Below, piece by piece: positions 4,283-42,044 of a stretch of 64,000 nt of DNA. The notes beneath the pieces are model-generated. The model worked only from the letters and a program-made list of their open reading frames with translations, was not told the DNA's origin and made no database searches. The translations under genes were made by a program, and so were the position numbers. Numbering within the stretch: position 1 is the first letter of the stretch; every line of letters starts with the position of its first letter. Origin of the DNA: Bacillota bacterium (GTDB taxonomy: Bacteria; Bacillota; Clostridia; Lachnospirales; Lachnospiraceae); the NCBI GenBank assembly GCA_029558315.1, contig JAKQFQ010000359.1:15789-79788 (forward strand). Direction: 5' to 3'.

Positions 4283-4294
4283 AAAGTAGGTCAA

Positions 4295-5550: not shown

Positions 5551-6546
5551 ATGTTAAATGACAAGACAATACTAATCACAGGTGGAACCGGATCTTTTGG
5601 AAAATGTTTCACAAAATATGTTTTGACGCATTATAATCCCAAGAAAATAATTATTTATTCCAGAGATGAGTTTAAACAGTTCATTATGCAAAATGAATTC
5701 AGGGAGTATCAGGATAAGCTTCGTTTCTTTATTGGAGATGTCAGAGATTTAGAACGTTTGAAGCGTGCCTTAAATGGGGTAGACTATATTATTCATGCCG
5801 CAGCATTAAAACAGGTTCCGGCGTGTGAATACAATCCAAATGAGGCAATCAAGACCAATATTCATGGAGCTATGAATGTAATTGAAGCAGCACTGGACTG
5901 CGATGTTAAGAAGGTGGTAGCACTTTCTACTGACAAGGCGGTGAATCCGGTAAATCTTTATGGAGGCACAAAGCTCGTATCAGATAAGCTGTTTGTTGCG
6001 GCCAACGCATATGCCGGCGCAAGTGATTTGAATTTTTCTATCGTACGCTATGGAAATGTTGCCGGTAGCCGTGGATCGGTAATCCCGTTTTTCCAGAATA
6101 TCATTAATAAGGGCGATAAGGAATTGCCAATTACGGATTACAGGATGACCCGTTTCTGGATTTCTTTAACCCAGGGCGTTGAATTAGTGATCAAAGCACT
6201 TGAAGAAGCCAAAGGTGGAGAGACATTTATCAGTAAGATTCCATCCTTTAAGATTACAGATCTTGCACAGGCCATGTTACCCGGATGTGAAATGCCGGAG
6301 GTAGGTATTCGTGAGGGCGAAAAACTCCATGAAATCATGGTTACAGTGGAAGATTCCATGACAACGTATGAATATGATAAACATTTTATCGTTTATCCAC
6401 AGATGGTATGGAGTGAGAAGAAGATGCCGGTACCAACAGGCAAGAAAGTGCCGGAAGGATTCTCTTATAGTTCCGGTAATAACACCGAATGGCTTAGCGT
6501 TGAACAGATTAAGGAACTTTTAGAGGATATCGATTTGGAGAAATAA
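5551..6546 (+). CDS. pseB: UDP-N-acetylglucosamine 4,6-dehydratase (inverting), PseB/FlaA1 type
   Basis: Near-collinear match by eye to Campylobacter PseB: ILITGGTGSFGK, IIIYSRDE, FIGDVRD, ALSTDKAVNPVNLYGGTKL, RYGNVAGSRGSVIPFF, ELPITDYRMTRFWISL, GEKLHEIM. Confidence 0.9.
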   Translation: MLNDKTILITGGTGSFGKCFTKYVLTHYNPKKIIIYSRDEFKQFIMQNEFREYQDKLRFFIGDVRDLERLKRALNGVDYIIHAAALKQVPACEYNPNEAIKTNIHGAMNVIEAALDCDVKKVVALSTDKAVNPVNLYGGTKLVSDKLFVAANAYAGASDLNFSIVRYGNVAGSRGSVIPFFQNIINKGDKELPITDYRMTRFWISLTQGVELVIKALEEAKGGETFISKIPSFKITDLAQAMLPGCEMPEVGIREGEKLHEIMVTVEDSMTTYEYDKHFIVYPQMVWSEKKMPVPTGKKVPEGFSYSSGNNTEWLSVEQIKELLEDIDLEK

Positions 6547-6551
6547 TCAGG

Positions 6552-7601
6552 ATGAAAAAGGCAATTACGATCAAGAACAGAATGATTGGAGAAGGGCAGG
6601 CAGCCTATGTGATTGCTGAGATGTCAGCCAATCACGCAGGAGATATGAATCGAGCTTTGGAGATCATTCATGCAGCCAAGGAGTGTGGAGCTGATTGTGT
6701 GAAGATTCAGACCTATACACCGGACACGATTACAATGGATTGCCATAATGAATACTTCACATTACAAAGCGGAACCTGGAAGGGAGAAAATCTCTACCAG
6801 CTATACGGCAAGGCATATACCCCATGGGAGTGGCAACCTCGTTTGAAAGAGGAAGCGGATAAGATTGGAATTGATTTTTTCTCCACTCCATTTGATCGTA
6901 CTGCTGTTGATTTCCTGGAAGAAATGCAGGTTGAATTCTATAAGATTGCATCCTTTGAAGTGGTGGATATTCCCTTAATTCGTGCTGTTGCAGCAACACA
7001 CAAACCGATAATCATGTCGGTCGGGATGGCTACTGTTTCTGAAATAGAGGAAGCGATTGATGCTGTTAGAAGTATGGGCAACGATCAGCTTGCGCTTTTG
7101 AAATGCTGTAGTGTTTACCCTGCGATTGCAGACAATATGAATCTTCGTACCATTCCGGATATGAAGAATCGATTTGGAGTCCCGGTGGGACTATCCGATC
7201 ATTCCATGGGAGGAATTGCTGCTGTGACTGCAGTAGCTCTTGGAGCAGCAATCATAGAAAAGCACTTTTGTCTTGGGAGAGATATTGAAAATCCGGATTC
7301 TTCATTTTCAATGGAACCGGAAGAATTTGCCCAGATGGTAAAGGAAATCAGACTTGCAGAAAAAGCAATGGGAAATGTGAGCTATGAGTTGTCAAAGGCA
7401 GAAATGGAGAGCAGGAATACAAGAAAATCCATTTTTGCTTCAGCTGATATTCAGGCAGGTGAGAAGCTGACAGCATCCAATATCAGGGTGGTTCGTCCGG
7501 GATATGGTATGGAACCTAAGTATTATGACGAAATTCTTGGAAAGACAGCACGAAATGCAATTCCTTTTGGGACACCAATCAGTTGGGAACAGTTTGAATA
7601 A
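6552..7601 (+). CDS. pseI: Pseudaminic acid synthase (NeuB family)
   Basis: NeuB-family N-terminus (IAEMSANHAGD, DCVKIQTY, FKIASFE, GLSDHS) plus a C-terminal SAF-like domain. It is assigned as PseI rather than NeuB/LegI because PseB/C/G/H/F flank it. Confidence 0.8.
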   Translation: MKKAITIKNRMIGEGQAAYVIAEMSANHAGDMNRALEIIHAAKECGADCVKIQTYTPDTITMDCHNEYFTLQSGTWKGENLYQLYGKAYTPWEWQPRLKEEADKIGIDFFSTPFDRTAVDFLEEMQVEFYKIASFEVVDIPLIRAVAATHKPIIMSVGMATVSEIEEAIDAVRSMGNDQLALLKCCSVYPAIADNMNLRTIPDMKNRFGVPVGLSDHSMGGIAAVTAVALGAAIIEKHFCLGRDIENPDSSFSMEPEEFAQMVKEIRLAEKAMGNVSYELSKAEMESRNTRKSIFASADIQAGEKLTASNIRVVRPGYGMEPKYYDEILGKTARNAIPFGTPISWEQFE

Positions 7602-7613
7602 GGGTGGCAGAGA

Positions 7614-8645
7614 ATGAAACTATATATTCGTACCGAGGCCAATCAGATTACTGCTACAGGGCATGTGATGCGCTGTCTGGCAATGGCTGATGCGGCTTTG
7701 GCTAAAGGCATTGATACGGTATTTATCGCGGCGGAGGAAGCATCCCTTGCTCTGGTACATCAGAGAGGGTATGAGTCTATCTGCCTGTTTCATAAGTGGG
7801 ATAATTTTGATGATGAGATTCCTCTGATGCAGGAACTGATTCATACCAATGCAATTGAAGTGCTTCTGATTGACAGCTATTATGTCAGTGAGAAATATAT
7901 GAAGGCAATGGCAGAATTGACCCAGACAGCATACATTGATGATTTACATGCAAAAATCTGGACATGTCATACGCTGATTAATTATTCGGTATATGCCGAT
8001 TTGTTCGCTTATAAGCAGGAGTACCCGGATACGCAGAGATTACTTGGGTGTCAATATGTACCTCTTCGACATGAATTTGAACACCTGAGACCATTTGAGG
8101 TAAAGGAACAGGTAAGGAAGGTATTGGTTGTAACCGGTGGAACAGACGAGTTTCATTTTATGAAAGAATTTTGTAAAAAAATTGCAGCCGATAACAAATG
8201 GCAGGCAATTCATTTCTTTATGGTTTGTGGCAGATTTAACTGTGATCAGGAGCAATTGCAGGCAATGGCCTCACAGAATAGAAATATTGAGATTTGTGAA
8301 GCATTACCGACATTAAAGGATGCAATGGAAGATTCGGATTTGTTGATCACGGCGGGGGGTACAACCTTATATGAGATGGCTGCAATTGGTATTCCGGGAA
8401 TCTGCTTTGGCATAGCAGATAATCAGAAATATAATATTGCAGGATTTGAAGAAAGGCAGCTGGTTCTAAATGCCGGAGATATCAGAACAGATTTTTTCTT
8501 TGAGAATCTGATGCAAAAGCTGGAGGAGCTGATTTTCGATGCTGCAAGACGCCGTACAATGTCAGGACAATTAAGAAGGCTTGTGGATGGACAGGGTGCC
8601 AGTCGTATTATTGAGGCAATATGTAAGATAGAAGGAAATGAATAG
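7614..8645 (+). CDS. pseG: UDP-2,4-diacetamido-2,4,6-trideoxy-beta-L-altropyranose hydrolase (PseG, MurG/GT28-like fold)
   Basis: N-terminus IRTEANQITATGHVMRCLAMA and C-terminal LITAGGTTLYEMAAIGIP are typical of PseG. Its position inside the pse cluster supports the call. Confidence 0.75.
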   Translation: MKLYIRTEANQITATGHVMRCLAMADAALAKGIDTVFIAAEEASLALVHQRGYESICLFHKWDNFDDEIPLMQELIHTNAIEVLLIDSYYVSEKYMKAMAELTQTAYIDDLHAKIWTCHTLINYSVYADLFAYKQEYPDTQRLLGCQYVPLRHEFEHLRPFEVKEQVRKVLVVTGGTDEFHFMKEFCKKIAADNKWQAIHFFMVCGRFNCDQEQLQAMASQNRNIEICEALPTLKDAMEDSDLLITAGGTTLYEMAAIGIPGICFGIADNQKYNIAGFEERQLVLNAGDIRTDFFFENLMQKLEELIFDAARRRTMSGQLRRLVDGQGASRIIEAICKIEGNE

Positions 8646-8657
8646 GAGATGTTTGTG

Positions 8658-9857
8658 ATGGAGCAGAATCAACCGGCAATTACGGGTGGAAAACCAATCA
8701 GAGAGACCAGATTATTCTATGGTCATCAGTATATCGACGAGGCTGATATTGAGGCTGTTGTAGAGGTGCTAAAGAGCGATTATCTGACTTGCGGACCAAA
8801 GATTACGGCTTTGGAGGAGAGATTATGTGCAATTACGCAGGCGAAACATGCCTGTGTTGTCAGCAACGGAACGGCGGCATTGCATATCGCCGGCCAAGCC
8901 CTTGGAATCGGTAAAGGGGATGAAGTTATTACGACCCCTATTACGTTTGCGGCATCTGCTAATTGCGCACTCTATTGTGGCGCGATTCCGGTGTTTGCAG
9001 ATATTGATGAAAAAACATATAACATTGATGTGAATTGTATAGAGAAATGTATCACAGAGAAGACCAGAGCGGTAGTTGCTGTGGATTATACAGGACAGGC
9101 TGTGAATCTGCAGGCAATCAAGGAGCTTTGCAGGAAACATTCCCTGTATCTGATTGAAGATGCGGCACATGCTATCGGAACCAAATATCAGGGACAACCG
9201 GTGGGCAGTATTGCCGATCTTACGACCTTTTCGTTCCATCCTGTAAAAACTGTAACAGGTGGAGAGGGAGGCGCTGTGCTTACTAATGATGATGAACTGG
9301 CGAAGAAAGTTGCATTGTATCGTTCACATGGAATAACCAGAGAGCCGGAACTGATGGAACAGGAATCCGAGGGTGGATGGTATTACGAGCAGGTTGCACT
9401 TGGCATGAATTATAGAATGACAGACATTCAGGCCGCACTGATTCTAAGTCAGCTGGATAAGCTTGATTCATTTAGTGCAAGAAGAAGTGAGATTGTAAAG
9501 CAGTATAATGAAGCTTTTCTAAAGATAGATGGAGTTATCGTTCAGCAGGAAATCCCGGAATCGGAAACAACGAGACATTTGTACATCTTGAGATTGGACC
9601 CTGAGAAATTGAAATGTACCCGTGCGGAGTTCTTTCTGGCAATGGCGGCAGAAAATATTTGCTGCAATGTCCATTACATCCCTGTATATCGACATCCATA
9701 TTATGTACATCTTGGATATCCTAAGGGATTATGCCCTAATGCAGAAGCACTCTATGAGAACATGATGAGTCTTCCGTTATACTATTCACTGACGAATCAG
9801 GACGTAGAGGATGTAATTGGTGCAGTCAGAAAACTGGTAGCGTATTATCACATTTAA
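8658..9857 (+). CDS. pseC: UDP-4-amino-4,6-dideoxy-N-acetyl-beta-L-altrosamine transaminase (DegT/DnrJ/EryC1 family)
   Basis: YGHQYIDEADIEAVVEVLKSDYLTCGPK and SFHPVKTVTGGEGG (PLP lysine region). The start is moved from 8649 to the ATG at 8658 because AGGAG (8644-8648) abuts 8649 with no spacer. Confidence 0.85.
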   Translation: MEQNQPAITGGKPIRETRLFYGHQYIDEADIEAVVEVLKSDYLTCGPKITALEERLCAITQAKHACVVSNGTAALHIAGQALGIGKGDEVITTPITFAASANCALYCGAIPVFADIDEKTYNIDVNCIEKCITEKTRAVVAVDYTGQAVNLQAIKELCRKHSLYLIEDAAHAIGTKYQGQPVGSIADLTTFSFHPVKTVTGGEGGAVLTNDDELAKKVALYRSHGITREPELMEQESEGGWYYEQVALGMNYRMTDIQAALILSQLDKLDSFSARRSEIVKQYNEAFLKIDGVIVQQEIPESETTRHLYILRLDPEKLKCTRAEFFLAMAAENICCNVHYIPVYRHPYYVHLGYPKGLCPNAEALYENMMSLPLYYSLTNQDVEDVIGAVRKLVAYYHI

Positions 9858-9871
9858 CCCGGAGGAATACA

Positions 9872-10915
9872 ATGGAGTTATCCATTATTGTACCTGTCTA
9901 TAATATGGCAGCAGATGACAAATTAAAGCATTGTATGGATTCTTTGATTGCACAAACAGTCGATGAGTATGAAATTATTGCAGTGGATGATGCCTCGACA
10001 GATGAGTCGTTAAAAGTGCTTAGATCCTATGAGAAAAAATATCCCGGGATTGTAAAGGTAATTGCATGCAAGGAGAATCAGCGACAAGGCGGAGCAAAGA
10101 ATGCAGGCTTGGAACAGGCATCAGGAAAATGGGTTGGATTTATTGACAGTGATGACTGGATTATGCCGGATATGTATCAAAAGCTAATTAAGAAGGCTGA
10201 TGCAACCGGGGCAGATCTGGTGGGCTGTGATTATGCAATCGTTACCTCCTATTGTGAACCGGATAAAATAAAACAAACACAAATGCAGGTTGTTGAGAAT
10301 AATACGCAGCAACAGACCGGTGTCCTGGACGAAGAGAAGCATAAGAAACTAATCTTAAGATCCGGCAGTATGGTGGTCAAAATATATCTAAGACAGATTA
10401 TAGAAGAGAACCACCTGCGTTTCCCGGAGAGGATGTTTTATGAGGATAATTGTGCGGCACCGCTTTGGTCGATGTATTTTACCCATTTTGAGAGAGTGGA
10501 AGAACCCCTGTATTTTTATCTGACCTTACCGGCTTCTACTACGCATCATGTGACCTGGGATAAATGCCAGGATCGGATGAAGGCGGCAAAGCTGTTGCTT
10601 GAGGAGAGCAGAGCGAGAGGCTTTTTTCAACAGTACCAGAAAGAGATTGAGTTTCGATTTACAGAATTATTTTACGTGACAACGTTATTTTCCTATATGT
10701 ATTCCGGAAAGAGACAATCGATAAAGCATACTCGATGGTTGAAAAAGCAAATGCTTGAGGCCGTCGATCGTTTTTGGGAAAATCCATATTATACTTCCAT
10801 GGTAGCTGCGGAAGATCAGAAATTCATTCGGATTCAGATGAAATCCAATGTCATTTTTTTCTTATATTACCGATTGCTTTTTGCATATCGGAAGCTTAGA
10901 AAAGGCGTAAGATAG
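9872..10915 (+). CDS. GT2-family glycosyltransferase embedded in the pse cluster
   Basis: LSIIVPVYNMA...IIAVDDASTDES...IDSDDW (GT-A DXD region). Confidence 0.8.
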   Translation: MELSIIVPVYNMAADDKLKHCMDSLIAQTVDEYEIIAVDDASTDESLKVLRSYEKKYPGIVKVIACKENQRQGGAKNAGLEQASGKWVGFIDSDDWIMPDMYQKLIKKADATGADLVGCDYAIVTSYCEPDKIKQTQMQVVENNTQQQTGVLDEEKHKKLILRSGSMVVKIYLRQIIEENHLRFPERMFYEDNCAAPLWSMYFTHFERVEEPLYFYLTLPASTTHHVTWDKCQDRMKAAKLLLEESRARGFFQQYQKEIEFRFTELFYVTTLFSYMYSGKRQSIKHTRWLKKQMLEAVDRFWENPYYTSMVAAEDQKFIRIQMKSNVIFFLYYRLLFAYRKLRKGVR

Positions 10916-10928
10916 GAGAGGGATTAAG

Positions 10929-11621
10929 ATGAAAGCCTGTGCGATTATTACGGCCCGTGGTGGCAGCAAGAGAATTCCCAGAAAGAATATTAAAGATTTC
11001 CTTGGGAAACCGATATTAACCTATTCAATTGAAGCTGCACTTGCCTGTGGAGTATTTGACGAAGTGATGGTTTCGACAGATGATGAAGAGATTGCAGAGA
11101 TCGCAAGAGAGGCAGGAGCCTGCGTACCTTTTGTCCGAAGCGAAAGCAATTCCAATGATATGGCGACAACGGCAGAGGTTATTGATGAAGTTGTGAAGTG
11201 CTATCAGATGGAGGAAAAAAAATTTGACTTCCTGTGCTGCATTTATCCGACGGCTCCTTTTCTTACTGCAGATGCGATAAAATGTGCAATGAAAACATTA
11301 GAGGAAAGTGAGGCTGATTCAGTTCTCCCAGTGGTTCGTTTTTCCTTTCCACCGCAACGCAGTGTTGTTATGAAGGACGGATATCTAGAACCGAAATGGC
11401 CTGAGAATATGCAGAAAAGATCACAGGATTTGGAAGAAATGTATCATGACTGCGGACAGTTCTACTGCCTGCGGACCAGCAGCTTCCTCAAACAGAAGAA
11501 AGTGGTAATGGAGAAGACGTTACCGTATTTTCAAGAGGAAATGACAGTACAGGATATTGACACATTAGAAGACTGGAAGATTGCAGAAGTGAAATATAAG
11601 ATCTGGAAAGATAGAATCTGA
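10929..11621 (+). CDS. pseF: Pseudaminic acid cytidylyltransferase (CMP-NeuAc synthetase family)
   Basis: AIITARGGSKRIPRKNIKDFLGKP N-terminal cytidylyltransferase motif. About 230 aa, in pse context. Confidence 0.8.
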   Translation: MKACAIITARGGSKRIPRKNIKDFLGKPILTYSIEAALACGVFDEVMVSTDDEEIAEIAREAGACVPFVRSESNSNDMATTAEVIDEVVKCYQMEEKKFDFLCCIYPTAPFLTADAIKCAMKTLEESEADSVLPVVRFSFPPQRSVVMKDGYLEPKWPENMQKRSQDLEEMYHDCGQFYCLRTSSFLKQKKVVMEKTLPYFQEEMTVQDIDTLEDWKIAEVKYKIWKDRI

Positions 11622-11628
11622 GGATAAT

Positions 11629-13611
11629 ATGGAGCTATATCTTAGAAAAGCAACACAATTGGATAAGAAACTTATTTTCGACTGGGCCAATGAAGCCAAG
11701 ACCAGGAATAATTCTTTCCATAGTGAGCCCATCCTTTGGGAGGAACACGAAGCGTGGTTTGAGAAGGTGTTAGAAGCCAAGGACACCTTTCTTTTTGTAT
11801 GCATGGATTTTATGGTGCCGGTTGGACAGATTAGAGTGCAACTGACATCGGATCGGAAAGGTATGATCAGTTATAGCGTGGAAGAGAGCCATCGGGGGAG
11901 AGGTTACGGAAGAACTATGCTGGCACTTCTGGAGAAGGAACTGATTAAAAATAAGCTTATCGGCTATACCTTGATTGGAGAGACCAGGCCGGAGAATGAA
12001 GCTTCTGGACGGGCCTTCCTTTCACAGGGATATCTAAGAACTGAAGCAAGTAAAGAAAAGAATTGCTACTGTAAGGAAATAACTGCTCAACACAAGGAAA
12101 CAGCAGAGAAGAATGATACTGCGTTACAAAAGCGAGAGGCTAAGTTTGAAATTCTTCGTGTGTTGGCAATGATGATGATCATTGTTTTGCACTATCTAAG
12201 CAAGGGAGAATTGCTTGGAAATATAACTGATGGTATGAATCGAGCGAATTGCTGGTTCTGGTTTCTTGAGGCAGCATGTCTTGTCAGTGTGAATGTCTAT
12301 GTTTTAATTAGCGGTTATTTTCTGGTAAACAGCAGATTTTCTCTTGGTAAATTAGTGAATCTATGGTGCAGAATTCTGTTCTATAGTATCGGTGTGAGTG
12401 TTGTTTTGGTGATAACAGGTGTAGTGGATTATAGAAGCATTCTGAATTTTTATGATTTACAGTTCTTTTGTCTGCCGACCATCAATGGCCATTATTGGTT
12501 TGCAACCTCATATGTGATTTTTTATCTGCTGGCACCATTTCTTGGAAAAGCAGCGAAGGCGATGAAGAAAAAGGAGTTGAAGCTTCTTATTTTTCTGCTG
12601 TTAATTCCATTTTGTTTCATCAAATCTATCCTTCCGGTTGCCTTACCGGTTGATGATCTTGGGAACAGCTTTGTCTGGTTTATCTGCCTGTTTTTTATTG
12701 CGGCGTATATCAGACTTTATGGAATTGCATTCTTTAAGACAAAATGGGCAGGATTGGCTGTTTATCTGATGTCTGTTGGTGGAATCCTGCTTTCGATACT
12801 TGCAGCAGGAAGCCTGGTGAAGCAGACAGGAAACTATGAGTATGCACTTACGATTCCGTCAAATTACAATTTCTTCTTTGTATTAACGGGATCGGTGGGA
12901 TTGTTCTGTGCATTTTTGAAGATGCAGTTTAAGAATAATATTTTAACAGGATATCTGGTCAGAATTGCTCCGTATACATTTGGTGTGTACCTGCTGCATG
13001 AGCATCTGCTGCTTCGTTATGAGTGGCCTGGGTGGCTTTGGGTTTCAAATATTTACGGTGGCTATCGCGTTCTTCACATTTTATTCTGTACAATATTTGT
13101 CTTGGTAATTGGAATTCTTGTCGACTGGATAAGAAGTTTGATTTTTACCGCAATCCAGAAATTAATAATTTTTTCTTTGAAAATATATTATGCCAAGCAG
13201 GAGGTCTGGGATTATCTGATTTTTGGTGCATTGGCCACAGTAGTGAACTGGGTGGTTTATATTGCATTTGCATACTGTTTTCTTGCCCCATTCTGGCAAT
13301 ATCATGATACTATAAGAGAAATGACTGCGAATGTGATTGCATGGATTGTTGCAGTGCTCTTTGCTTATTGGACCAACAGAACATTCGTCTTTCATAGTAG
13401 TGCGAAGGGAACAAAGGCAATGCTTAAGGAGTTTAGTTCCTTTATCAGTGCAAGAATTTTTTCGTTCCTTGTAGAGCTTGGCATGTTTTATATCTTTGTA
13501 GACTGGCTTGAGATCAATGACCTGATATCAAAGCTGATTATCAGTGTTGTTGTGATTATATTAAACTATATATTCAGTAAGCTGTGGATTTTTAAGAAAA
13601 AAGAAAAATAG
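11629..13611 (+). CDS. pseH: Tri-domain fusion: PseH-type GNAT N-acetyltransferase + acyltransferase-3 (10-TM-like) + GtrA-like 4-TM domain
   Basis: aa 1-~160 are PseH-like GNAT (LRKATQLDKKLIFDWAN...EEHEAWF...HRGRGYG). aa ~170-520 are the AT3 type (FEILRVLAMMMIIVLHY..., many hydrophobic segments). aa ~530-660 are the GtrA type (YLIFGALATVVNWVVY...AYWTNRTFVF...LNYIFSKLWIFKK). It is a single uninterrupted ORF. Confidence 0.75.
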   Translation: MELYLRKATQLDKKLIFDWANEAKTRNNSFHSEPILWEEHEAWFEKVLEAKDTFLFVCMDFMVPVGQIRVQLTSDRKGMISYSVEESHRGRGYGRTMLALLEKELIKNKLIGYTLIGETRPENEASGRAFLSQGYLRTEASKEKNCYCKEITAQHKETAEKNDTALQKREAKFEILRVLAMMMIIVLHYLSKGELLGNITDGMNRANCWFWFLEAACLVSVNVYVLISGYFLVNSRFSLGKLVNLWCRILFYSIGVSVVLVITGVVDYRSILNFYDLQFFCLPTINGHYWFATSYVIFYLLAPFLGKAAKAMKKKELKLLIFLLLIPFCFIKSILPVALPVDDLGNSFVWFICLFFIAAYIRLYGIAFFKTKWAGLAVYLMSVGGILLSILAAGSLVKQTGNYEYALTIPSNYNFFFVLTGSVGLFCAFLKMQFKNNILTGYLVRIAPYTFGVYLLHEHLLLRYEWPGWLWVSNIYGGYRVLHILFCTIFVLVIGILVDWIRSLIFTAIQKLIIFSLKIYYAKQEVWDYLIFGALATVVNWVVYIAFAYCFLAPFWQYHDTIREMTANVIAWIVAVLFAYWTNRTFVFHSSAKGTKAMLKEFSSFISARIFSFLVELGMFYIFVDWLEINDLISKLIISVVVIILNYIFSKLWIFKKKEK

Positions 13612-13625
13612 GAACGGGAGAGACG

Positions 13626-14066
13626 ATGAAAAAATTATTTGATCAACTAATTAAGTTTGGCCTTGTAGGTGCGTTTTGTTTTGTGATTGATTTTACGATT
13701 ACGGTCGGAATGAATCGAATCGGGGTAAATTATCTGATTGCTGCATTCTTTGGCTTTGTTATTTCCGTAACCGTGAACTATGTTCTTAGCTTTAAATTCG
13801 TGTTTAAGAGAAAAGAGAACCTGGACCGAAGAGCAGAGTTTATGATCTTTTTGATTCTCAGTGTTATCGGCCTTGGGATTAATGAACTGATTATGTATCT
13901 GTGTGTGGATCTGGTATACTATCAACAGGCCTGGTTACAGGAGAAAATCATAGAAAATACCGCTGTTATTGCCGCCAAAATTATTGCTACGGCAGTTGTT
14001 ATGGTATATAACTTTGTAACAAGAAAGCTTTTTCTCGAGAAAAAGGAAAAAACAAAGTCAGAATAA
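13626..14066 (+). CDS. gtrA: GtrA-family small membrane protein (putative polyprenyl-phosphate-sugar flippase component)
   Basis: 146 aa with four hydrophobic segments. LIKFGLVGAFCFVIDFTI...NYVLSFKFVFKR...YNFVTRKLFLF-type GtrA pattern. Confidence 0.8.
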   Translation: MKKLFDQLIKFGLVGAFCFVIDFTITVGMNRIGVNYLIAAFFGFVISVTVNYVLSFKFVFKRKENLDRRAEFMIFLILSVIGLGINELIMYLCVDLVYYQQAWLQEKIIENTAVIAAKIIATAVVMVYNFVTRKLFLEKKEKTKSE

Positions 14067-14077
14067 GGGAAACAAGA

Positions 14078-14108
14078 ATGAAAAAGAAAATGAAAAAGAA
14101 AATGAAAA
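14078..14108 (+). repeat. 12-bp tandem repeat (ATGAAAAAGAAA x2 plus a partial third copy) spanning the start codon
   Basis: atgaaaaagaaa atgaaaaagaaa atgaaaa, encoding MKKKMKKKMK. It provides three in-frame ATGs. Confidence 0.9.
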
Positions 14109-15859
14109 CAACAGCAGTCATGATCATTCCAATTGTCTTTTTGCTTTATTCGATGATTGGAATTAACCAGGGAGCAGATGTGACAGACACAACGTATAGT
14201 CTGGGCAATTATCTCTTCTTTAATGAAATGACGAGCGGATGGAAATATGCAATTTATCTTGCTAATTGTGTCGGCAGCCTGCTGATGACAGTGACGGGAG
14301 GTAAACTGATTCTGATGAATGCAGTTACACGGTTGTTTGTTGCGGCTATGGCAATTGCTGTCTTTTTCGTGTTACGTAAGAGAGTTCCGTCCCTGATTTT
14401 ATTTATTGGAGAAATTCTTGCAATTAGTATGTGCTGGTGCCCAACTGTAATTCTATATAATTATCTTACGTATTTCTTTCTGACAATAGCAGCATTATTG
14501 CTATATTCGGGGCTGCAGCGGCAAAAGAAAAGTCTTCTTCTGTTAGCCGGGATTCTTCTGGGATTAAATGTTTTTGTCAGAATTTCCAATCTGACACAGA
14601 TGTCACTTATTCTGGTCGTTTTGTATGACGCATGGAGTAAGAGAGCAGAAACCAGGTGGGGAATAATTTTCTGGAAGAATACTTTGTTTTGCGTTTTGGG
14701 ATATGGAATCGGATGCGTGGGAATGCTTGGAGTTATGTTGCTTGTAGAAGGAAGCGATGGATATCTGTCGATGATTTCCTGGTTGTATGGTATGTTTACT
14801 TCATCAGACAGCAATGGCGGGTACTCCATGTTTGATATGGTGAAGTCGATTGTGGGTAATTATGTGGGGAATGTGAAATGGCTATTGCTCATGGCTGCCG
14901 GTATTGCAGCCGGAACTGCGATGTTTTTGATTGCTAAGAGTAAAATGTTATGGATCAAGAGAATACTTTTTGCAGGTGGAGTAGGAATCCTGTTCCTGTA
15001 TTTCTATCGAAATGGGATGTTTACCGGTCTGTACTATAGTGTTGGAAGTATCTTTTGCATCAATGTGGTATTTCTGCTCATCGCCTATATTGTACTTCTT
15101 ATGGCACTGTTTCACAGAACGCTGGAACAGGAAGACAAATTACTTGCACTGCTGGCTTTTCTGATTCTGCTATTTACACCACTGGGAAGTAATAATCATG
15201 TATATACGATTATGAACAACCTCTTTTTCCTGGCTCCGGTCACTTTGATGCTGTTTTATAAAATGCTTACTCCATTTTTGCCTAAAGAACAGAGTTTTCC
15301 GCTTGCTTTTATGAGTATGGCATTTTTGATTCTATTCGTTATTCAGGCTGTAATGTTTCATTCCTCCTTTGTCTTTCGTGACGGAACCAATGGGGAGAAG
15401 CGTGATACGGTAATTGCAGGGAATAGTGTGATGAGCGGTATGATCACTAACGCTGCTCATGCACAGGCAATCGAGGAACTGGAGAATTATACAATGCAGA
15501 ATCATCTGCAGGGAAGGTATGCGTTATTCTATGGCAACATCCCAGGGGCACAATATTTGCTTAAGATGCCTTGCGCAATTTCTTCAACCTGGCCGGATTT
15601 AGACAGTTACTCGTATGAACAGTTCCTCGAGGAGAGCACTGTGTTTGAAAATGCAGAGACACTACCGCTTTTTGTGTTATCACCAGAAGTTGCTGCGTAT
15701 GTGACAGAAGATTCAGAAGGGATGCAATATCTTCTGATCGATCAGCATTTATATGAGAAAGATCAAAAGCTTGACCGAATCAGAACGATAATATTAGAAT
15801 ACAATTATAAGGAGATTTTTGGAAATCAAGAATTTGTCCTGATGGAAGGAAGCAGATAA
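14078..15859 (+). CDS. Large polytopic membrane protein, candidate GT-C-type extracytoplasmic glycosyltransferase
   Basis: 593 aa. The N-terminal ~430 aa are strongly hydrophobic and the C-terminal ~150 aa are soluble. An acidic stretch follows the first hydrophobic segment (NQGADVTDTTYSLGNY). It sits next to gtrA. The function is inference only. Confidence 0.45.
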   Translation: MKKKMKKKMKTTAVMIIPIVFLLYSMIGINQGADVTDTTYSLGNYLFFNEMTSGWKYAIYLANCVGSLLMTVTGGKLILMNAVTRLFVAAMAIAVFFVLRKRVPSLILFIGEILAISMCWCPTVILYNYLTYFFLTIAALLLYSGLQRQKKSLLLLAGILLGLNVFVRISNLTQMSLILVVLYDAWSKRAETRWGIIFWKNTLFCVLGYGIGCVGMLGVMLLVEGSDGYLSMISWLYGMFTSSDSNGGYSMFDMVKSIVGNYVGNVKWLLLMAAGIAAGTAMFLIAKSKMLWIKRILFAGGVGILFLYFYRNGMFTGLYYSVGSIFCINVVFLLIAYIVLLMALFHRTLEQEDKLLALLAFLILLFTPLGSNNHVYTIMNNLFFLAPVTLMLFYKMLTPFLPKEQSFPLAFMSMAFLILFVIQAVMFHSSFVFRDGTNGEKRDTVIAGNSVMSGMITNAAHAQAIEELENYTMQNHLQGRYALFYGNIPGAQYLLKMPCAISSTWPDLDSYSYEQFLEESTVFENAETLPLFVLSPEVAAYVTEDSEGMQYLLIDQHLYEKDQKLDRIRTIILEYNYKEIFGNQEFVLMEGSR

Positions 15860-16987
15860 ATGATTAATTTTAATGTACCGCCATATACGGGAAAAGAGAT
15901 GGATTACATCAAGCAGTGTGTTGAAGCACAGAAAATATGCGGAGACGGGCAGTTTACCAGAAAATGTAATGAGTGGATAGAGAAGAAGATGAAAGTCAGA
16001 AAGTGTCTGCTGACAACCTCCTGTACGCATGCAACAGAAATGGCTGCATTACTTGCAGGTATTAAAGAGGGGGATGAGGTGATTATGCCTTCCTATACTT
16101 TTGTTTCTTCTGCGAATGCTTTTGTGCTTCGTGGTGCGAAGGTTGTATTTGTTGATATCAGACCGGATACCATGAATATGGATGAAAATCTGATCGAACA
16201 GGCAATTACTGAAAAAACGAAGGCAATTGTTCCGGTGCATTATGCCGGTGTAGCTTGTGAAATGGATAAAATAATGGAGCTGGCAAAGAAATATCGTTTG
16301 CTTGTCATTGAGGATGCAGCACAGGGAGTCATGTCGAATTATCATGGACAGGCACTTGGTACGATTGGTGATCTGGGATGCTACAGTTTTCATGAAACCA
16401 AGAATTACAGTATGGGAGAAGGCGGAGCTCTTCTGATGCGGGACGAGTTGTACATTGAAGAAGCGGAGATTATTAGAGAAAAAGGAACGGATCGTAGTCG
16501 CTTTTTTAGAGGACAGGTTGATAAATATACCTGGGTTAATTACGGCTCATCATATCTGCCAAGTGATATGAATGCAGCATATCTGTATGCACAGCTGGAA
16601 TTGGCAGAAGAGATTAATCAAGAAAGACTTGCCATCTGGAACCGATACTATGAAGGCCTTCGTCCACTGATGGAAGAGGGCAGACTACAGTTGCCTACAA
16701 TACCGGAAGGCTGTGTTCATAATGCACACATGTTTTATGTGAAAGCTGCAGATTTTGAAGAAAGAACGGCCTTGATCTCCTTTTTGAAGGAACAGGATAT
16801 CTTGTCGGTATTTCACTATATACCACTTCATACATCTCCGGCAGGAAAACAGTTTGGAAGATTTAATGGAGAGGATGTCTATACCACCAAGGAGAGCGAA
16901 AGACTGACAAGGCTTCCGCTATATTATAACATGACCCGGGAGCAGAATGAATATATCATTGATAAGGTGAAGGAGTTTTACCGCTAA
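15860..16987 (+). CDS. wecE: dTDP-4-amino-4,6-dideoxyhexose aminotransferase (WecE/RffA-like, DegT family)
   Basis: Collinear by eye with E. coli WecE: FNVPPYTGKEMDYI, CGDGQFTRKC, EVIMPSYTFVSSANAFVLRGAKVVFVDIRPDTMNMDE, VPVHYAGVACEMD, SFHETKNY, REKGTDRSRFFRGQVDKYTW, VFHYIPLH, TKESERLTRLPLYYN. Confidence 0.85.
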   Translation: MINFNVPPYTGKEMDYIKQCVEAQKICGDGQFTRKCNEWIEKKMKVRKCLLTTSCTHATEMAALLAGIKEGDEVIMPSYTFVSSANAFVLRGAKVVFVDIRPDTMNMDENLIEQAITEKTKAIVPVHYAGVACEMDKIMELAKKYRLLVIEDAAQGVMSNYHGQALGTIGDLGCYSFHETKNYSMGEGGALLMRDELYIEEAEIIREKGTDRSRFFRGQVDKYTWVNYGSSYLPSDMNAAYLYAQLELAEEINQERLAIWNRYYEGLRPLMEEGRLQLPTIPEGCVHNAHMFYVKAADFEERTALISFLKEQDILSVFHYIPLHTSPAGKQFGRFNGEDVYTTKESERLTRLPLYYNMTREQNEYIIDKVKEFYR

Positions 16988-16991
16988 ACAT

Positions 16992-18701
16992 ATGAAGAAG
17001 AAGGAAATGGCAATTTGTGCCGTGATTACAATTGGTTTTTTTGCAGTCATTGCGATGTGCTTTGATATGATGTATTGTCTTAACGATGATCTCATGATAC
17101 AGAGTATTCTTTCGGGTGGCTTTAGCGCAAAACCGAGCGGAATGAGTGTCTATCTGAGTCAGCCGTTAAGTTCCCTGCTGAGCTTTTTATATTCAATTAT
17201 TCCTGGTGTGCCCTGGTTGGGGGCTTTTTTCTGTACCTGCTATATTGTTGGCTTCTTTCTGATACTATACCGCCTTTTTTTACTGTTTCATTCTAAAAAG
17301 GAGCAGATTCTGGCGGCTGTAATCTGTATAAGTGCTTTTCTTGCTTTGTGTCTGAATAGTTATGTAATGATTCATTATACTGTCGTAGCTGCAATCACAG
17401 GTGGCTGCGGTATTTTTATGATGGTAACGGATAATCTGTTAGATAAACCGCGTTTTGGAAGGCGAATTGTTTCTGTGATTCTTCTTTGGTTTTGCTATCT
17501 GATTCGGACAAAGGTTTTTTTCCTGCTGATCCCATTTATCCTGTGTACACTGGCTTTGGATGTAATGGGAGACCATTCCAAAAAACACATGAAGCAGCTG
17601 ATTAGCTATCTTCTGGTGCTTTTTGGTGGACTAATGATTCTGATTGGAGTGAACCAATTCTGTTATTCCGAAGAGGCATGGCAGCAGTATCTGGCATATA
17701 ATGATGCCAGAACAGAAGTTTATGATTATCGCGGAATCTGGACTGATATAGATTCACTGCAATACTATCAGGAACAGAAAATTACAGAAGAGCAGCTTTT
17801 GATGTATCAAAGCTACAATATTATGCTTGATGATAATGCCGGGAATCTACAAGGAACCCAAATATTACAAAAGATTGCAGATAATCCGAACATTCCCGGA
17901 ACACAAGTATCCATTGTTAACAGAATCAAGAATGCATTATGGATTTACAAAGACCAGACAATTCATTCAGAGGATGGATATCCCTATAATTATTTGGCAA
18001 TAGGGATGTATTTACTTCTTGGTATTGTAATCCTTAGAGCTAAGAGATATTGGCATTGTTTGATTCTATTGCTAAGCGGTGGGGCGAGAAGCAGTTTATT
18101 CCTTTATCTCTATGCCTTTGGACGTTATCCAGAGAGAGTGACGCTTTCTATATATCTGGTGGAATTTCTCTTCCTTATGGGGTATTTGCTGTATCTTACA
18201 TTAACATCAAGGGACAGCCCAAAGAAGAGATATGTACAGGAAAGCATATTACTGCTTGTTTTTCTCTTGATTTCTGTTAATGGCATCAGCGTAACAATAC
18301 AGGATTGCAGGGAACAAAAATCTGTTAATGAAGCAGAGGATGTGGTATACTCATACATGGAATCCCATCCGGAGAATTTTTATTTTTTGGATGTCTATAC
18401 TACGGTATATCACACAAGAGGTGTATTTGATCCGATGGACAAGGAACCGGAGAATTATCTGTATCTTGGTGGCTGGATGACAGGAAGCCCATTGGTAACG
18501 ATGAAAAAAGAGTATTTTGGAATCGAAGAGATTAAAGATGCCTTGTTATATGCTGATAATGCCCTGTTTATCACCAGGGATGGAACCGGAATGACAGCAG
18601 AAAATCTGGAAAAGTGTCTGGGAGTGGAAGAAGGATATTTTCAATTGGTAGATATGTTACAGGGGGGAAATGATAATTTTTTGATTTATCAGGCGCAGTA
18701 A
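16992..18701 (+). CDS. Large polytopic membrane protein with a C-terminal soluble domain, candidate GT-C-type transferase
   Basis: 569 aa. Hydrophobic segments run to about aa 440. An NDD motif follows the first segment (CLNDDLMIQSIL). No family recognised. Confidence 0.4.
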   Translation: MKKKEMAICAVITIGFFAVIAMCFDMMYCLNDDLMIQSILSGGFSAKPSGMSVYLSQPLSSLLSFLYSIIPGVPWLGAFFCTCYIVGFFLILYRLFLLFHSKKEQILAAVICISAFLALCLNSYVMIHYTVVAAITGGCGIFMMVTDNLLDKPRFGRRIVSVILLWFCYLIRTKVFFLLIPFILCTLALDVMGDHSKKHMKQLISYLLVLFGGLMILIGVNQFCYSEEAWQQYLAYNDARTEVYDYRGIWTDIDSLQYYQEQKITEEQLLMYQSYNIMLDDNAGNLQGTQILQKIADNPNIPGTQVSIVNRIKNALWIYKDQTIHSEDGYPYNYLAIGMYLLLGIVILRAKRYWHCLILLLSGGARSSLFLYLYAFGRYPERVTLSIYLVEFLFLMGYLLYLTLTSRDSPKKRYVQESILLLVFLLISVNGISVTIQDCREQKSVNEAEDVVYSYMESHPENFYFLDVYTTVYHTRGVFDPMDKEPENYLYLGGWMTGSPLVTMKKEYFGIEEIKDALLYADNALFITRDGTGMTAENLEKCLGVEEGYFQLVDMLQGGNDNFLIYQAQ

Positions 18702-18717: not shown

Positions 18718-19254
18718 ATGGTTAGAGTAATGAGTCAGGAATACGTTATCGTTGGAGAGAAAATCTGTCTTCGAAGGATGACAGTTGAGGATACACAACA
18801 GATTATCCAGTGGAGAAATTCTGAAGAAGTGATGGAGCAGTTCCTCTTTCGGGAGCCGTTGACAGTAAAGATGCATTTGAGCTGGATTGAGAATAAAGTC
18901 AAGACCGGATTGGTAGAGCAATTTATTGTATGCGTAAAGGAGACCGGGCGGGAAATAGGAAGCACCTATTTAAGAGACATTGACCGCAAAGAAAAAACTG
19001 CTGAATATGGAATGTTTATTGGGGAGACAGAGGAAAAAGGCAAAGGATACGGCAGGGAAATGGAAGATTTGACAACCCGTTATGCATTGGACTCTCTGGG
19101 AATGGAGAAAGTTATGATCAGAATGCTTGAGAGTAATATTGCTTCATATAAAGCTGCAATAGCGAATGGTTACCGCGTGATACCGGAGAAAGAAGAGACG
19201 ATGGTTCTGGATGGGCATCCGCAAAAGGTGATTTTTATGGAGGTGACGAAATGA
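18718..19254 (+). CDS. GNAT-family N-acetyltransferase (RimJ/RimL-like; candidate amino-sugar N-acetyltransferase)
   Basis: LRRMTVEDTQQIIQWRN...GKGYGRE...GYRV pattern. The start is uncertain (ATG 18718 has an RBS only 1 nt away; the alternative ATG is at 18730). Confidence 0.7.
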   Translation: MVRVMSQEYVIVGEKICLRRMTVEDTQQIIQWRNSEEVMEQFLFREPLTVKMHLSWIENKVKTGLVEQFIVCVKETGREIGSTYLRDIDRKEKTAEYGMFIGETEEKGKGYGREMEDLTTRYALDSLGMEKVMIRMLESNIASYKAAIANGYRVIPEKEETMVLDGHPQKVIFMEVTK

Positions 19255-20204
19255 GATTGGTGAGTTTTATCATCCCCTGTTACCGATCTGAGAAAACAAT
19301 TGGTACAGTTGTAGAAGAAATTAATCAGACAATGCAGGAACAACCTCAATATTCGTATGAGGTGATCCTGATTAATGATTGTTCTCCGGACGATACTTTT
19401 CAGACAATTAAGGAATTATGCCAGAAGGATCCGGCTGTAACCGGAATTGATTTTGCACGAAATTTTGGTCAGCACTCTGCTTTAATGGCCGGGATTCGTC
19501 AAGCCAAAGGGGAGATTATTGTCTGCCTGGATGATGATGGTCAGACACCAGCATGTGAAGCACCATTGCTTTTGGATGCATTAGAACAGGGGGCTGATGT
19601 TGCTTATGCAAGATACTCCCACAAGAAGCACTCGGTATTTCGTAACTTTGGCAGCTGGGTCAATGAGGAAATGGCAAGATTTATGCTGGACAAGCCAAAG
19701 GAATTATATATTTCAAGTTATTTTGCCGCTAAGCGTTATATCGTTGACGATATGATTAAGTATGAGAATTCTTATCCCTATGTAATTGGTCTGGTCTTAC
19801 GTTCTACCAGAAATATTGTGAATGTCGATGTGAATCATCGAAGCCGTGAGGTCGGTAATTCCGGATACACATTAAAGAAATTACTTGGATTGTGGATGAA
19901 TGGATTTACATCTTTTTCTGTTAAACCACTTAGAATTGCAACTGCAATTGGATGCTTTTTTGCAATCATAGGCTTTATCTATGGTATAATTGTTGTTATC
20001 CAAAGACTGGTTCTTCCGGATCGTGCACTTGGTTTTTCTTCGCTGATGTCAGCACTCGTGTTTTTTGGCGGTATGATTATGATTATGCTGGGGCTGATTG
20101 GTGAATATGTGGGAAGGATATATATCAGTATTAACAATTCCCCTCAATATGTAATCAAAGAGATTGTAAGACAAGAACAAAAGGAGAAGGAGAAGGTAGG
20201 ATGA
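19251..20204 (+). CDS. GtrB/ArnC-like GT2 polyprenyl-phosphate glycosyltransferase with two C-terminal TM helices
   Basis: VSFIIPCYRSEKTI...ILINDCSPDDT...NFGQHSALMAG...CLDDDGQ, then two C-terminal hydrophobic helices (IATAIGCFFAIIGFIYGIIVV; VFFGGMIMIMLGLIGEYVGRIY). This is the classic GtrB/ArnC layout. Confidence 0.8.
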   Translation: MRLVSFIIPCYRSEKTIGTVVEEINQTMQEQPQYSYEVILINDCSPDDTFQTIKELCQKDPAVTGIDFARNFGQHSALMAGIRQAKGEIIVCLDDDGQTPACEAPLLLDALEQGADVAYARYSHKKHSVFRNFGSWVNEEMARFMLDKPKELYISSYFAAKRYIVDDMIKYENSYPYVIGLVLRSTRNIVNVDVNHRSREVGNSGYTLKKLLGLWMNGFTSFSVKPLRIATAIGCFFAIIGFIYGIIVVIQRLVLPDRALGFSSLMSALVFFGGMIMIMLGLIGEYVGRIYISINNSPQYVIKEIVRQEQKEKEKVG

Positions 20205-20920
20205 GCAAAGAACTAACCAAAGAAAATGTTGTGGTTTCAGTAGTAATCCCCTGCTACAATGAGAAAGACACTCTGGAACATTTAATAGAAACCGTAAGAA
20301 ATTGCGGCTTTCAGACAGAGATCATTCTGGTAGATGACAAATCTACAGATGGAACAAGGGAACTGATTGTAAGTAAACTGGCAGGCAAGGTAGATAAGGT
20401 ACTCTTTCATAAAAAAAATATGGGTAAAGGTGCAGGGCTTCGCCATGGATTTAAGGTAGCAACCGGTGATGTGGTTATCGTACAGGATGCGGATCTGGAA
20501 TACGATCCCAAGGAATTTGATAAATTACTTGCTCCTTTTGTTTATGGCAAAAAGGACGCAGATGTTGTCTATGGTTCCAGATATGCCAGAGGAACCCAGT
20601 ATCGAGTAGAGAGCTTTTACCATTCGCTTGGTAATAAACTATTGACCTTGTTATCCAATGTGTGTTGTGATCTCTCTCTGACAGATATGGAAACATGTTA
20701 TAAAATGTTTCGTAGAGAAGTGATTCAGTCAATTGATATCAAGGAGAACCGGTTTGGATTTGAGCCGGAGGTTACAGCAAAAATCGCCAGGAGAAAAGAT
20801 AAAGTCTATGAAATCCCAATTTCATATAATCCAAGAACATTTGAACAGGGTAAAAAGATTGGCATCAAAGATGCAATCAGGGCGTTTTACTGTATCATAA
20901 GATATAATTTTTTTGATTAG
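20201..20920 (+). CDS. Soluble GT2 glycosyltransferase, DPM1/Ppm1-like (polyprenyl-phosphate hexose synthase-like)
   Basis: VSVVIPCYNEKDTL...ILVDDKSTDGT...NMGKGAGL...VQDADLEYDP motif set. 239 aa with no TM segment. Confidence 0.7.
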   Translation: MSKELTKENVVVSVVIPCYNEKDTLEHLIETVRNCGFQTEIILVDDKSTDGTRELIVSKLAGKVDKVLFHKKNMGKGAGLRHGFKVATGDVVIVQDADLEYDPKEFDKLLAPFVYGKKDADVVYGSRYARGTQYRVESFYHSLGNKLLTLLSNVCCDLSLTDMETCYKMFRREVIQSIDIKENRFGFEPEVTAKIARRKDKVYEIPISYNPRTFEQGKKIGIKDAIRAFYCIIRYNFFD

Positions 20921-42001: not shown

Positions 42002-42044
42002 CACCCTTGTGGTTTTTTAATACTAGTAAAGGTTGTTGAGAACA

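Follow-up and report, generated by a model that had tools for sequence, protein, structure and literature searches.

A GNAT–AT3–GtrA tri-domain protein of Lachnospiraceae and the association of AT3, GtrA and GT-C in its family of surface-glycan loci

The window considered here is a stretch of 64,000 nucleotides (nt) from a Lachnospiraceae assembly (GCA_029558315.1, contig JAKQFQ010000359.1, positions 15,789 to 79,788), in which a single open reading frame (ORF) joins an N-terminal GNAT acetyltransferase domain, an acyltransferase-3 (AT3) domain and a C-terminal GtrA domain in a protein of 660 amino acids (aa). This tri-domain protein is real, conserved and lineage-specific to gut and rumen Lachnospiraceae, and it is probably a concatenation, specific to this family of bacteria, of two separable functions, namely a PseH-like GNAT and a membrane body for glycosylation and acylation. 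The stable unit of the locus family is AT3 together with GtrA and M593, a membrane glycosyltransferase (GT) of the GT-C fold, the three adjoining in almost every locus. It has been asked how stand-alone AT3 enzymes without an SGNH domain recognize and reach extracytoplasmic acceptors, and whether a partner protein is needed (PMC9558356). In almost every locus, AT3 adjoins a canonical GtrA and a GT-C protein or is fused to one of them, and this family offers a testable candidate answer and a Rosetta-stone clue to partner finding by SGNH-less AT3 enzymes.

The ORF and its parts are as follows.

11629..13611, plus strand: tri-domain ORF GNAT–AT3–GtrA, ATG start, 660 aa, stop codon included.
11620..11624, plus strand: Shine-Dalgarno-like GAGGA, 4 nt 5' of the ATG at 11629, overlapping the pseF stop codon (11619-11621).
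11629..12093, plus strand: GNAT domain (aa 1-155), PseH-like, cytoplasmic, from Pfam, a sub-threshold TIGR03585 match, Foldseek and conserved residues.
12094..12138, plus strand: flexible linker (aa 156-170), of low predicted local distance difference test (pLDDT) score and differing in length between homologues.
12139..13122, plus strand: AT3 domain (aa 171-498), ten-helix core of the AT3-only type, from PF01757, R177-X10-H188 and the helices of the model.
13123..13212, plus strand: junction (aa 499-528) extending the long helix 477-522, with a conserved IYYAKxEVWDYLIFG, from alignment and model.
13213..13593, plus strand: canonical GtrA domain (aa 529-655), four transmembrane (TM) helices, from PF04138 and the GtcA hallmark residues.

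A preliminary description, made from the sequence alone, had read one ORF joining three modules, among them a ten-helix AT3 and a GtrA with four TM helices, and both statements hold. GNAT, AT3 and GtrA all pass the Pfam gathering thresholds. At the N-terminus, Acetyltransf_3 (PF13302) matches aa 3-134 with 38.7 bits (cut-off 25.4) and Acetyltransf_1 (PF00583) scores 32.1 bits (cut-off 20.7); Acyl_transf_3 (PF01757) covers aa 173-498 with 75.0 bits against 31, over positions 4-324 of the 326 in the model, and GtrA_DPMS_TM (PF04138) covers aa 529-655 with 80.5 bits (cut-off 26.1). The landmarks of that description, FEILRVLAMMMIIVLHY, AYWTNRTFVF and LNYIFSKLWIF, lie at aa 173-189, 579-588 and 645-655, respectively. 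No SGNH domain was matched by Pfam in the protein, and the model has no eleventh AT3 helix.

The AlphaFold2 model of the 660-aa protein, built with 40 homologues, is confident (mean pLDDT 87.3, predicted template modelling score (pTM) 0.80) and displays the alpha/beta fold of a GNAT, ten AT3 helices, the long helix 477-522 and four GtrA helices (524-551, 560-587, 595-626 and 631-654). The linker is disordered at aa 156-166 (pLDDT <50). With 14 predicted membrane helices, and with the GNAT and both termini placed in the cytoplasm, the modelled arrangement is topologically consistent.

The residues expected of working AT3 and GtrA domains are present. The R/K-X10-H motif of the first AT3 helix, formed in OafA by R14 and H25, both essential (PMC7448272), corresponds to R177...H188 and is invariant both in 27 and in 40 aligned sequences (40/40 homologues), and the SG of the second helix is likewise invariant among homologues. 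For GtrA, the hallmarks are those described for GtcA, that is, eight residues conserved in >99% of homologues plus S136 and F141 (PMC7389260). The fused domain has all ten with identical spacing (A579, N583, V587, F588, F605, R609, K635, N646, S650 and F655), R609 and N646 being the counterparts of R95 and N132, both of them essential to the GtcA of Listeria (PMC7389260). As all ten are invariant in 32/32 fused GtrA domains, the domain is a canonical GtrA rather than an anchor that has degenerated.

The identical 660-aa sequence occurs on five contigs from four sources (NCBI, JGI, Logan and ENA), and four other 660-aa variants with at least 90% identity are found on further contigs. Full-length homologues with 41-57% identity form about 60 clusters (90% identity) and keep all three Pfam domains; those that are named come from Lachnospiraceae metagenome-assembled genomes (MAGs), annotated merely as 'GNAT family N-acetyltransferase'. 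For comparison between loci, one genome per GTDB species was scanned, giving 80 related loci (designated by L numbers), about 24 of which carry the same domain order as a single uninterrupted ORF, at 41-57% identity and all in Lachnospiraceae species. Both domain junctions are in frame across the aligned homologues. Cultured carriers include the rumen isolates XPB1003 (L013) and NK4A179 (L016), as well as AB2028. The architecture is rare: about 12 of 1.84 billion cluster representatives (50% identity) span AT3 and GtrA, and seven of these also bear an N-terminal extension of GNAT length. Some 280 other strong relatives were found among the cluster representatives, and more than 100 among the matches listed are stand-alone AT3 proteins of about 350-390 aa. 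The carriers are abundant gut and rumen Lachnospiraceae whose surface glycans, including those bearing pseudaminic acid (Pse), are essentially uncharacterised and probably shape recognition by phages and by the host immune system.

Comparison of the loci indicates which associations have been kept. In about 40 species, a separate 142-aa gtrA gene is followed by a gene for an AT3 of about 355 aa, the gap ranging from -4 to about 120 nt (median 24). The fused domain has its orthologue in this free gtrA, which scores 90-120 bits to the fused domain versus 10-20 bits to GtrA146, the second GtrA of the window, which is described further below. Gene order is gtrA-AT3 in these loci and the fusion order is AT3-GtrA, therefore the pair is kept together in both arrangements. 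In other Lachnospiraceae, AT3 is fused to a GT-C protein of the M593 type, namely in P0237 (900 aa, L082:4924-7626), P0307 (971 aa) and L047:10477-13404 (975 aa); the order in L082 is gtrA, AT3-GT-C fusion and WecE, and in L081 a GNAT-AT3 protein is followed by a separate GtrA. Such alternative fusions are Rosetta-stone evidence that AT3, GtrA and GT-C work together, and the three are probably in physical contact in a putative complex. A related fusion of another kind, P0101 (928 aa), combines AT3 (PF01757) with PF19510/DUF6044.

Downstream of the fusion, the window carries the genes of a glycosylation module.

14078..15859, plus strand: M593, GT-C-fold membrane glycosyltransferase, 593 aa, multi-pass, from structure prediction and Foldseek.
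15860..16987, plus strand: WecE-type dTDP-4-amino-4,6-dideoxyhexose transaminase (NF008687; TIGR02379 at 650 bits), above cut-offs.
16992..18701, plus strand: M569, multi-pass membrane protein, 569 aa, with an acidic C-terminal domain, from its hydropathy profile.
18718..19254, plus strand: GNAT178, stand-alone GNAT, 178 aa, co-occurring with WecE and GT2.
19251..20204, plus strand: GT2_317, ArnC/GtrB/PgfS-like GT2 of the polyprenyl-phosphate sugar synthase type, with two C-terminal TM helices.
20201..20920, plus strand: soluble GT2, PpgS/AglJ-like, not conserved with the module.

AT3, M593, WecE, M569, GNAT178 and GT2_317 co-occur in nearly all 80 loci, and Pse genes in a subset only. The conserved partners of AT3 are thus GtrA and GT-C within a WecE/GNAT/GT2 module, which had gone unseen in the preliminary description. 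M593 has no Pfam or NCBIfam match, and neither M593 nor M569 finds one in Pfam even at E<=5. The AlphaFold2 model of M593 (pLDDT 88, pTM 0.88) gives 25 top Foldseek matches in the PDB that are all GT-C proteins, led by ArnT (5f15, E=2.3e-5), with further matches to STT3, AglB, PMT, AftA, Emb, PglB, ALG9/12 and AftD. The first external loop of M593 has an invariant D37 and a D34 conserved to at least 90%. The M593-type family comprises more than 500 proteins, all 120 of the 120 source names listed being 'hypothetical protein', so that the locus exposes a large unannotated GT-C family. M569 resembles M593 in layout and a homologue of it weakly matches PF19528 (GT_STM0557_N), which makes it probably GT-C-like as far as the sequence tells. 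GT2_317 reaches 187 bits with the ArnC model and 170 bits with that of PgfS, both below the equivalog cut-offs and hence a match at family level only. GNAT178 would probably be the N-acetyltransferase of a 4-amino sugar; in L043:16466-17941 and L077:16476-17951, a GNAT of its type is fused to an ArnC-like GT2 (491 aa), which links it to the lipid-linked sugar branch. With a GT-A enzyme, a GtrA and a GT-C protein side by side, the downstream genes therefore form a transmembrane glycosylation system of the multi-component type (PMC8035078) with an amino-sugar branch of its own. The idea that the fused GtrA anchors the soluble PpgS-like GT2 (20201-20920) was rejected because this GT2 is conserved only in L006 and L022-26.

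Unlike the AT3 and GtrA domains, the GNAT comes and goes. The AT3/GtrA/GT-C module occurs without a fused GNAT in about 45 species. L028 and L029 encode AT3-GtrA proteins without GNAT, as does L020, and in L022-L026 (around 9989-11893) fusions of 631-634 aa have a GNAT cut short behind the acetyl-CoA loop; these truncated forms directly follow pseB, and none of pseG, pseI and pseF was found within 10 kb. In a neighbour-joining tree of the AT3 domains, all 49 unfused AT3s form one clade and all 32 GtrA-fused ones fall outside it, the GNAT-less (L020, L028/29) and truncated (L022-26) forms being nested among the tri-domain ones. This topology agrees with a single event that joined AT3 to GtrA, after which the GNAT was independently lost or eroded on at least three occasions. 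A GNAT of the fusion type is also found elsewhere: L070:4891-6387 (an Acetatifactor MAG) encodes a 498-aa ORF in which PseI is fused to it (129 bits). The fused GNAT is a separable add-on that tracks Pse genes. The preceding operon of the window is complete for this pathway but for one step.

5551..11621, plus strand: Pse operon pseB, pseI, pseG, pseC, GT2, pseF, ending 7 nt before the ATG at 11629.

PseB, PseC, PseG, PseI and PseF of the window all exceed their NCBIfam equivalog cut-offs, and PseH is the sole step without an above-threshold gene; besides the fused GNAT, the one other candidate for it is GNAT178. The PseH model is the best and most consistent NCBIfam match in 40/40 homologues of the fused GNAT (best E 3.9e-14). 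The acetyl-CoA motif R-x-x-G-x-G is present as R89-G-R-G92-Y-G94, and all 40 homologues share R89, N123, S126 and Y135. Searched by Foldseek, the tri-domain model retrieves GNAT folds, MJ1062 (3eo4) among them, with target-normalised TM-scores of 0.7-0.84. Hidden Markov models (HMMs) made for the two GNAT types of the window separate them clearly: on its own model the fusion type scores at least 188 bits in intact copies, the homologues of GNAT178 reach 231 bits or more on theirs, and cross-scores are at most 51 bits. The fusion type is the only GNAT in L002-5, L007 and L010, which have Pse genes and no WecE. GNAT178, in turn, always goes with WecE, M569 and GT2. The fused GNAT is thus most likely the PseH step of the adjacent Pse operon.

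With regard to mechanism, the following division of labour can be envisaged. The GNAT, cytoplasmic and tethered by its linker, would carry out the acetyl-CoA-dependent N-acetylation of UDP-4-amino-4,6-dideoxy-beta-L-AltNAc and so serve the CMP-Pse pathway. Separately, WecE and GNAT178 would yield an NDP-4-acetamido-4,6-dideoxyhexose, whose sugar the ArnC-like GT2 would load onto polyprenyl phosphate. The canonical GtrA domain would then bind and handle, or flip, this lipid-linked sugar, and M593, probably with M569, would move it to a surface glycan outside the membrane. AT3 would take an acyl group from cytoplasmic acyl-CoA through R177-X10-H188 and O-acylate the sugar or the acceptor at the outer face. 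A more specific version may tentatively be put forward as one possibility among others, in which this AT3 subfamily, the GtrA flippase and the GT-C protein make up a 'flip-acylate-transfer' complex, AT3 O-acylating the polyprenyl-phosphate monosaccharide which GtrA presents at the outer leaflet, before or during transfer by GT-C. If such a complex existed, the AT3-GtrA, AT3-GT-C and GNAT-AT3-GtrA fusions would be its Rosetta-stone records, and GtrA, not SGNH, would be the partner by which SGNH-less AT3 enzymes reach their acceptor.

A number of observations weigh against the concatenation of a PseH-like GNAT with a glycosylation and acylation body, or against parts of it. Regarding the GNAT, the score on the PseH equivalog TIGR03585 is 30.4 bits, where the cut-off is 93.1, and that of GNAT178 is higher (67 bits). 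Searches of the PDB by sequence and fold do not separate PseH from other small-molecule GNATs. The Foldseek top 50 for the tri-domain model consists of GNATs only, with Helicobacter pylori PseH (4ri1) at rank 36 and about 15% identity; in sequence searches with each GNAT as a single sequence, MJ1062 is the best match of both GNATs, so the PDB searches did not discriminate PseH. In L019, where none of pseG, pseI and pseF occurs within 10 kb, the GNAT is complete, and the tree of AT3 domains carries no bootstrap values. Regarding the membrane body, the RXXR motif after the second helix, essential in OafA, OafB and Oac (PMC7448272), is not conserved in this AT3 subfamily, whose consensus there is LWCQVFFYS; the window protein has a single Arg at this position (R248), the invariant residues being instead F251, Y252 and S253. 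The AT3 is a distinct subfamily because of this, and no named NCBIfam family matches it. That GtrA proteins translocate lipid-linked sugars is, in the literature too, no more than an inference (PMC8035078). As for the amino-sugar branch, a search for rmlA and rmlB found no dTDP-glucose 4,6-dehydratase in the scanned stretch of 30.7-41.3 kb. Finally, the unfused loci mostly carry nonulosonate-type genes just upstream (PseF-like in about 60%, PseI-like in about 50%, GT52 and PglK-like ABC), and AT3 could therefore act on a nonulosonate glycan rather than on a lipid-linked 4-amino sugar.

The last point leads to the main rival explanation, which is also the idea of the preliminary description, namely that the three domains belong to one pathway. 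AT3 would O-acetylate Pse or a Pse-bearing glycan, the PseH fusion would co-localise synthesis and modification, and GtrA would handle the lipid-linked acceptor. There is a precedent in Lag-1, which is of the AT3-only type and 8-O-acetylates a nonulosonic acid, legionaminic acid (PMC9558356), and besides the nonulosonate-type genes adjoining gtrA-AT3 in most unfused loci, the retention of the fusion across such diverged species with all GNAT motifs conserved speaks for a joint function, as does the pTM of the model, which suggests a compact arrangement of the membrane domains. Yet the GNAT is attached by a disordered linker, on at least three occasions it disappeared or decayed in lineages that kept AT3-GtrA joined, and the module does without it in those 45 or so species. 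AT3 is fused to GT-C in some lineages and never to a Pse enzyme besides this GNAT, and in L070 it is PseI that carries a GNAT of this type, which points to opportunistic fusion of operon neighbours. A coupling of Pse synthesis to trans-membrane acylation, which the preliminary description had proposed, is contradicted as a conserved need by these same absences, losses and the alternative PseI fusion, and a single pathway for the three domains appears unlikely.

A second alternative concerns the GNAT alone. It would not be PseH and would acetylate another amine, either the WecE product or a polyprenyl-phosphate amino sugar before it is flipped, GNAT178 being the PseH. Besides the higher TIGR03585 score of GNAT178, its weak match to Campylobacter jejuni PseH (4xpk) is in keeping with such an exchange of roles; the GNAT beside pseI in L052 and L080 is nearer the GNAT178 type, and in L073, with pseB, C, F and G, the sole GNAT of the locus is a GNAT178. 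The distribution of the two types argues the other way. GNAT178 accompanies WecE, M569 and GT2 in loci whose fetched flanks showed no Pse gene (e.g., L042, L044 and L046-48), and it is GNAT178 that is fused to GT2 in L043 and L077; the fused type, on the other side, stands alone in the Pse-plus/WecE-minus loci, is joined to PseI in L070 and is truncated in L022-26, where pseG, pseI and pseF are missing within 10 kb. The exchange of roles is accordingly judged rather improbable. As to the 'PseH-type' label of the preliminary description, the best NCBIfam match and the operon context sustain it, and the failed equivalog cut-off together with the higher score of GNAT178 do not. Given matches to the PseH model in 40/40 homologues but these scores, the domain is therefore better called 'PseH-like', or 'PseH by context'.

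That the ORF is an artefact or pseudogene, a frameshift, mis-assembly or decaying read-through having joined separate genes, is effectively refuted by the identical protein in independent assemblies, the intact ORF in about 24 species with the catalytic residues of all three domains under purifying conservation, and the confident predicted structure; in its favour, frame disruptions do occur within the fusion family, since L011:8166-10227 (MAG UBA7481), the sole split locus, has a 116-aa GNAT ORF and a 613-aa ORF, through either a frameshift or a sequencing error.

In the literature, AT3 domains are most often stand-alone and SGNH is their commonest fusion (PMC9558356), which contradicts the earlier statement that they are usually fused to, or paired with, SGNH. 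The architectures reported are AT3-only, AT3-SGNH, AT3-racemase (VanT) and NRF-AT3, and fusions to GtrA or GNAT are not mentioned in this AT3 literature (PMC9558356, PMC7448272, PMC12423673). A literature search on AT3-GtrA and GNAT-AT3 fusions and on Pse in Lachnospiraceae found no description of the fusion, AT3 and GtrA genes co-occurring only in the gsf cluster of Actinoplanes. The three-way architecture, which had been thought undescribed, is so as far as the searched AT3 literature goes. The tri-domain sequences themselves are already public under generic names, and what is new is a glycosylation system with an integrated AT3 and a lineage-specific PseH-like fusion.

Several known systems can be set beside this one. 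Closest to the module are GtrA/GtrB/GtrC of Shigella and Salmonella phages, and CsbB-GtcA-YfhO and GtlA-GtcA-GtlB of Bacillus and Listeria (PMC8035078), with which it shares side-by-side genes for a membrane-anchored GT2 with C-terminal TM helices, a four-helix GtrA with GtcA hallmarks and a GT-C protein with conserved Asp residues in the first external loop. Unlike in these systems, GtrA is fused to AT3 in the window (and adjacent to it in relatives), the GT-C protein M593 is without a Pfam model, and the locus has its own WecE and GNAT branch and a second, divergent GtrA. With the AT3-only enzymes Oac, WbaK and Lag-1 (PMC9558356), the AT3 domain shares the ten-helix core without SGNH or an eleventh helix, the R/K-X10-H motif in the first helix, the SG in the second and a place in a surface-glycan locus, Lag-1 moreover acting on a nonulosonic acid; it differs in its N-terminal GNAT, its C-terminal GtrA, the RXXR motif that is not conserved and the lack of a characterised close relative. 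As in the AT3-SGNH proteins OafA, OafB, OatA and PglI, AT3 is joined to a partner thought to aid delivery of the acyl group to the acceptor; here this partner is a GtrA of four TM helices with cytoplasmic termini, whereas theirs is an extracytoplasmic SGNH domain connected via the eleventh helix.

Compared with PseH (Cj1313/HP0327; TIGR03585; 4xpk, 4ri1), the fused GNAT has the same fold, length and R-x-x-G-x-G motif and follows a pseBCGIF operon otherwise without PseH, but it is membrane-tethered, reaches 30 bits where the equivalog cut-off is 93 and has about 15% identity to the H. pylori enzyme in structural alignment. VanT offers a parallel, in that AT3 is fused to a cytoplasmic enzyme of a related cell-wall pathway (PMC9558356, PMC12423673), although that enzyme is a C-terminal serine/alanine racemase and not an N-terminal GNAT plus a GtrA. 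The gsf cluster of Actinoplanes missouriensis (PMC13390465) is likewise a GtrA-dependent glycosylation cluster that also holds an AT3 gene; there, however, the genes are separate and non-adjacent, no functional link has been proposed, and the phylum is another one.

Between the fusion and M593 lies the second GtrA, which had been placed 14 nt downstream as a stand-alone protein of 146 aa and which does begin after exactly 14 nt.

13626..14066, plus strand: second stand-alone GtrA (GtrA146), 146 aa, GtrA_DPMS_TM at 79.9 bits.
13616-13621, plus strand: Shine-Dalgarno-like GGGAGA for GtrA146, 4 nt upstream of the ORF at 13626.

In alignment, GtrA146 is a divergent paralogue in which Ser replaces the essential R95 and Arg replaces S136, as if the charge had moved from the third to the fourth TM helix. 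Its type is found in 17 of the 33 loci with the canonical GtrA fused to AT3 and in none of the 43 loci with a free canonical gtrA. The carriers are the window, L001, L003, L006, L008-10, L012, L013, L015, L018, L020, L027-29, L031, L032 and L081. That GtrA146 might be the obligate dimer partner of the tethered GtrA is weakened as an idea by L081, where it is the sole GtrA, alongside a GNAT-AT3 protein without fused GtrA.

In many related loci, a short-chain dehydrogenase/reductase (SDR) resembling NDP-hexose 4,6-dehydratases is encoded between the fusion and the GT-C gene, and its score of about 150 bits on TIGR01181 stays under the cut-off; at this place the window offers just 14 nt. Examples are given below.

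L009:10433-11515: dehydratase-like SDR.
L013:11998-13077: dehydratase-like SDR.
L016:7302-8396: dehydratase-like SDR.
L022:11890-12960: dehydratase-like SDR.
L028:11746-12825: dehydratase-like SDR.

Upstream of the Pse operon, the window has two further pairs of genes.

42-2881: GT52-like (sialyltransferase-family) transferase and PglK-like ABC exporter.
2888-5440: MBOAT protein (DltB/PatA-like, 464 aa), then an AlgX-type SGNH protein (381 aa).

The GT52-like/PglK-like pair lies immediately upstream of gtrA-AT3 in unfused loci, a position suggestive of a lipid-linked glycan with a nonulosonate as the substrate decorated. The MBOAT and AlgX-type pair gives the operon that holds AT3 another, independent O-acylation system, and it is present in only some of the related loci (L001-3, L010, L011 and L027).

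The 64-kb window as a whole is almost entirely one plus-strand array of surface-glycan genes, with a uniformly positive GC skew of about +0.2. This array encodes, among others, a Wzy-like protein, a Bac_transf initiating transferase, a GtrII-type GT-C protein (27747-29291) and a UDP-glucose dehydrogenase, along with a sulfatase/LtaS-like protein (42033-43865), an asparagine synthase homologue, two further ABC exporters and many glycosyltransferases of the GT1, GT2 and GT4 families.

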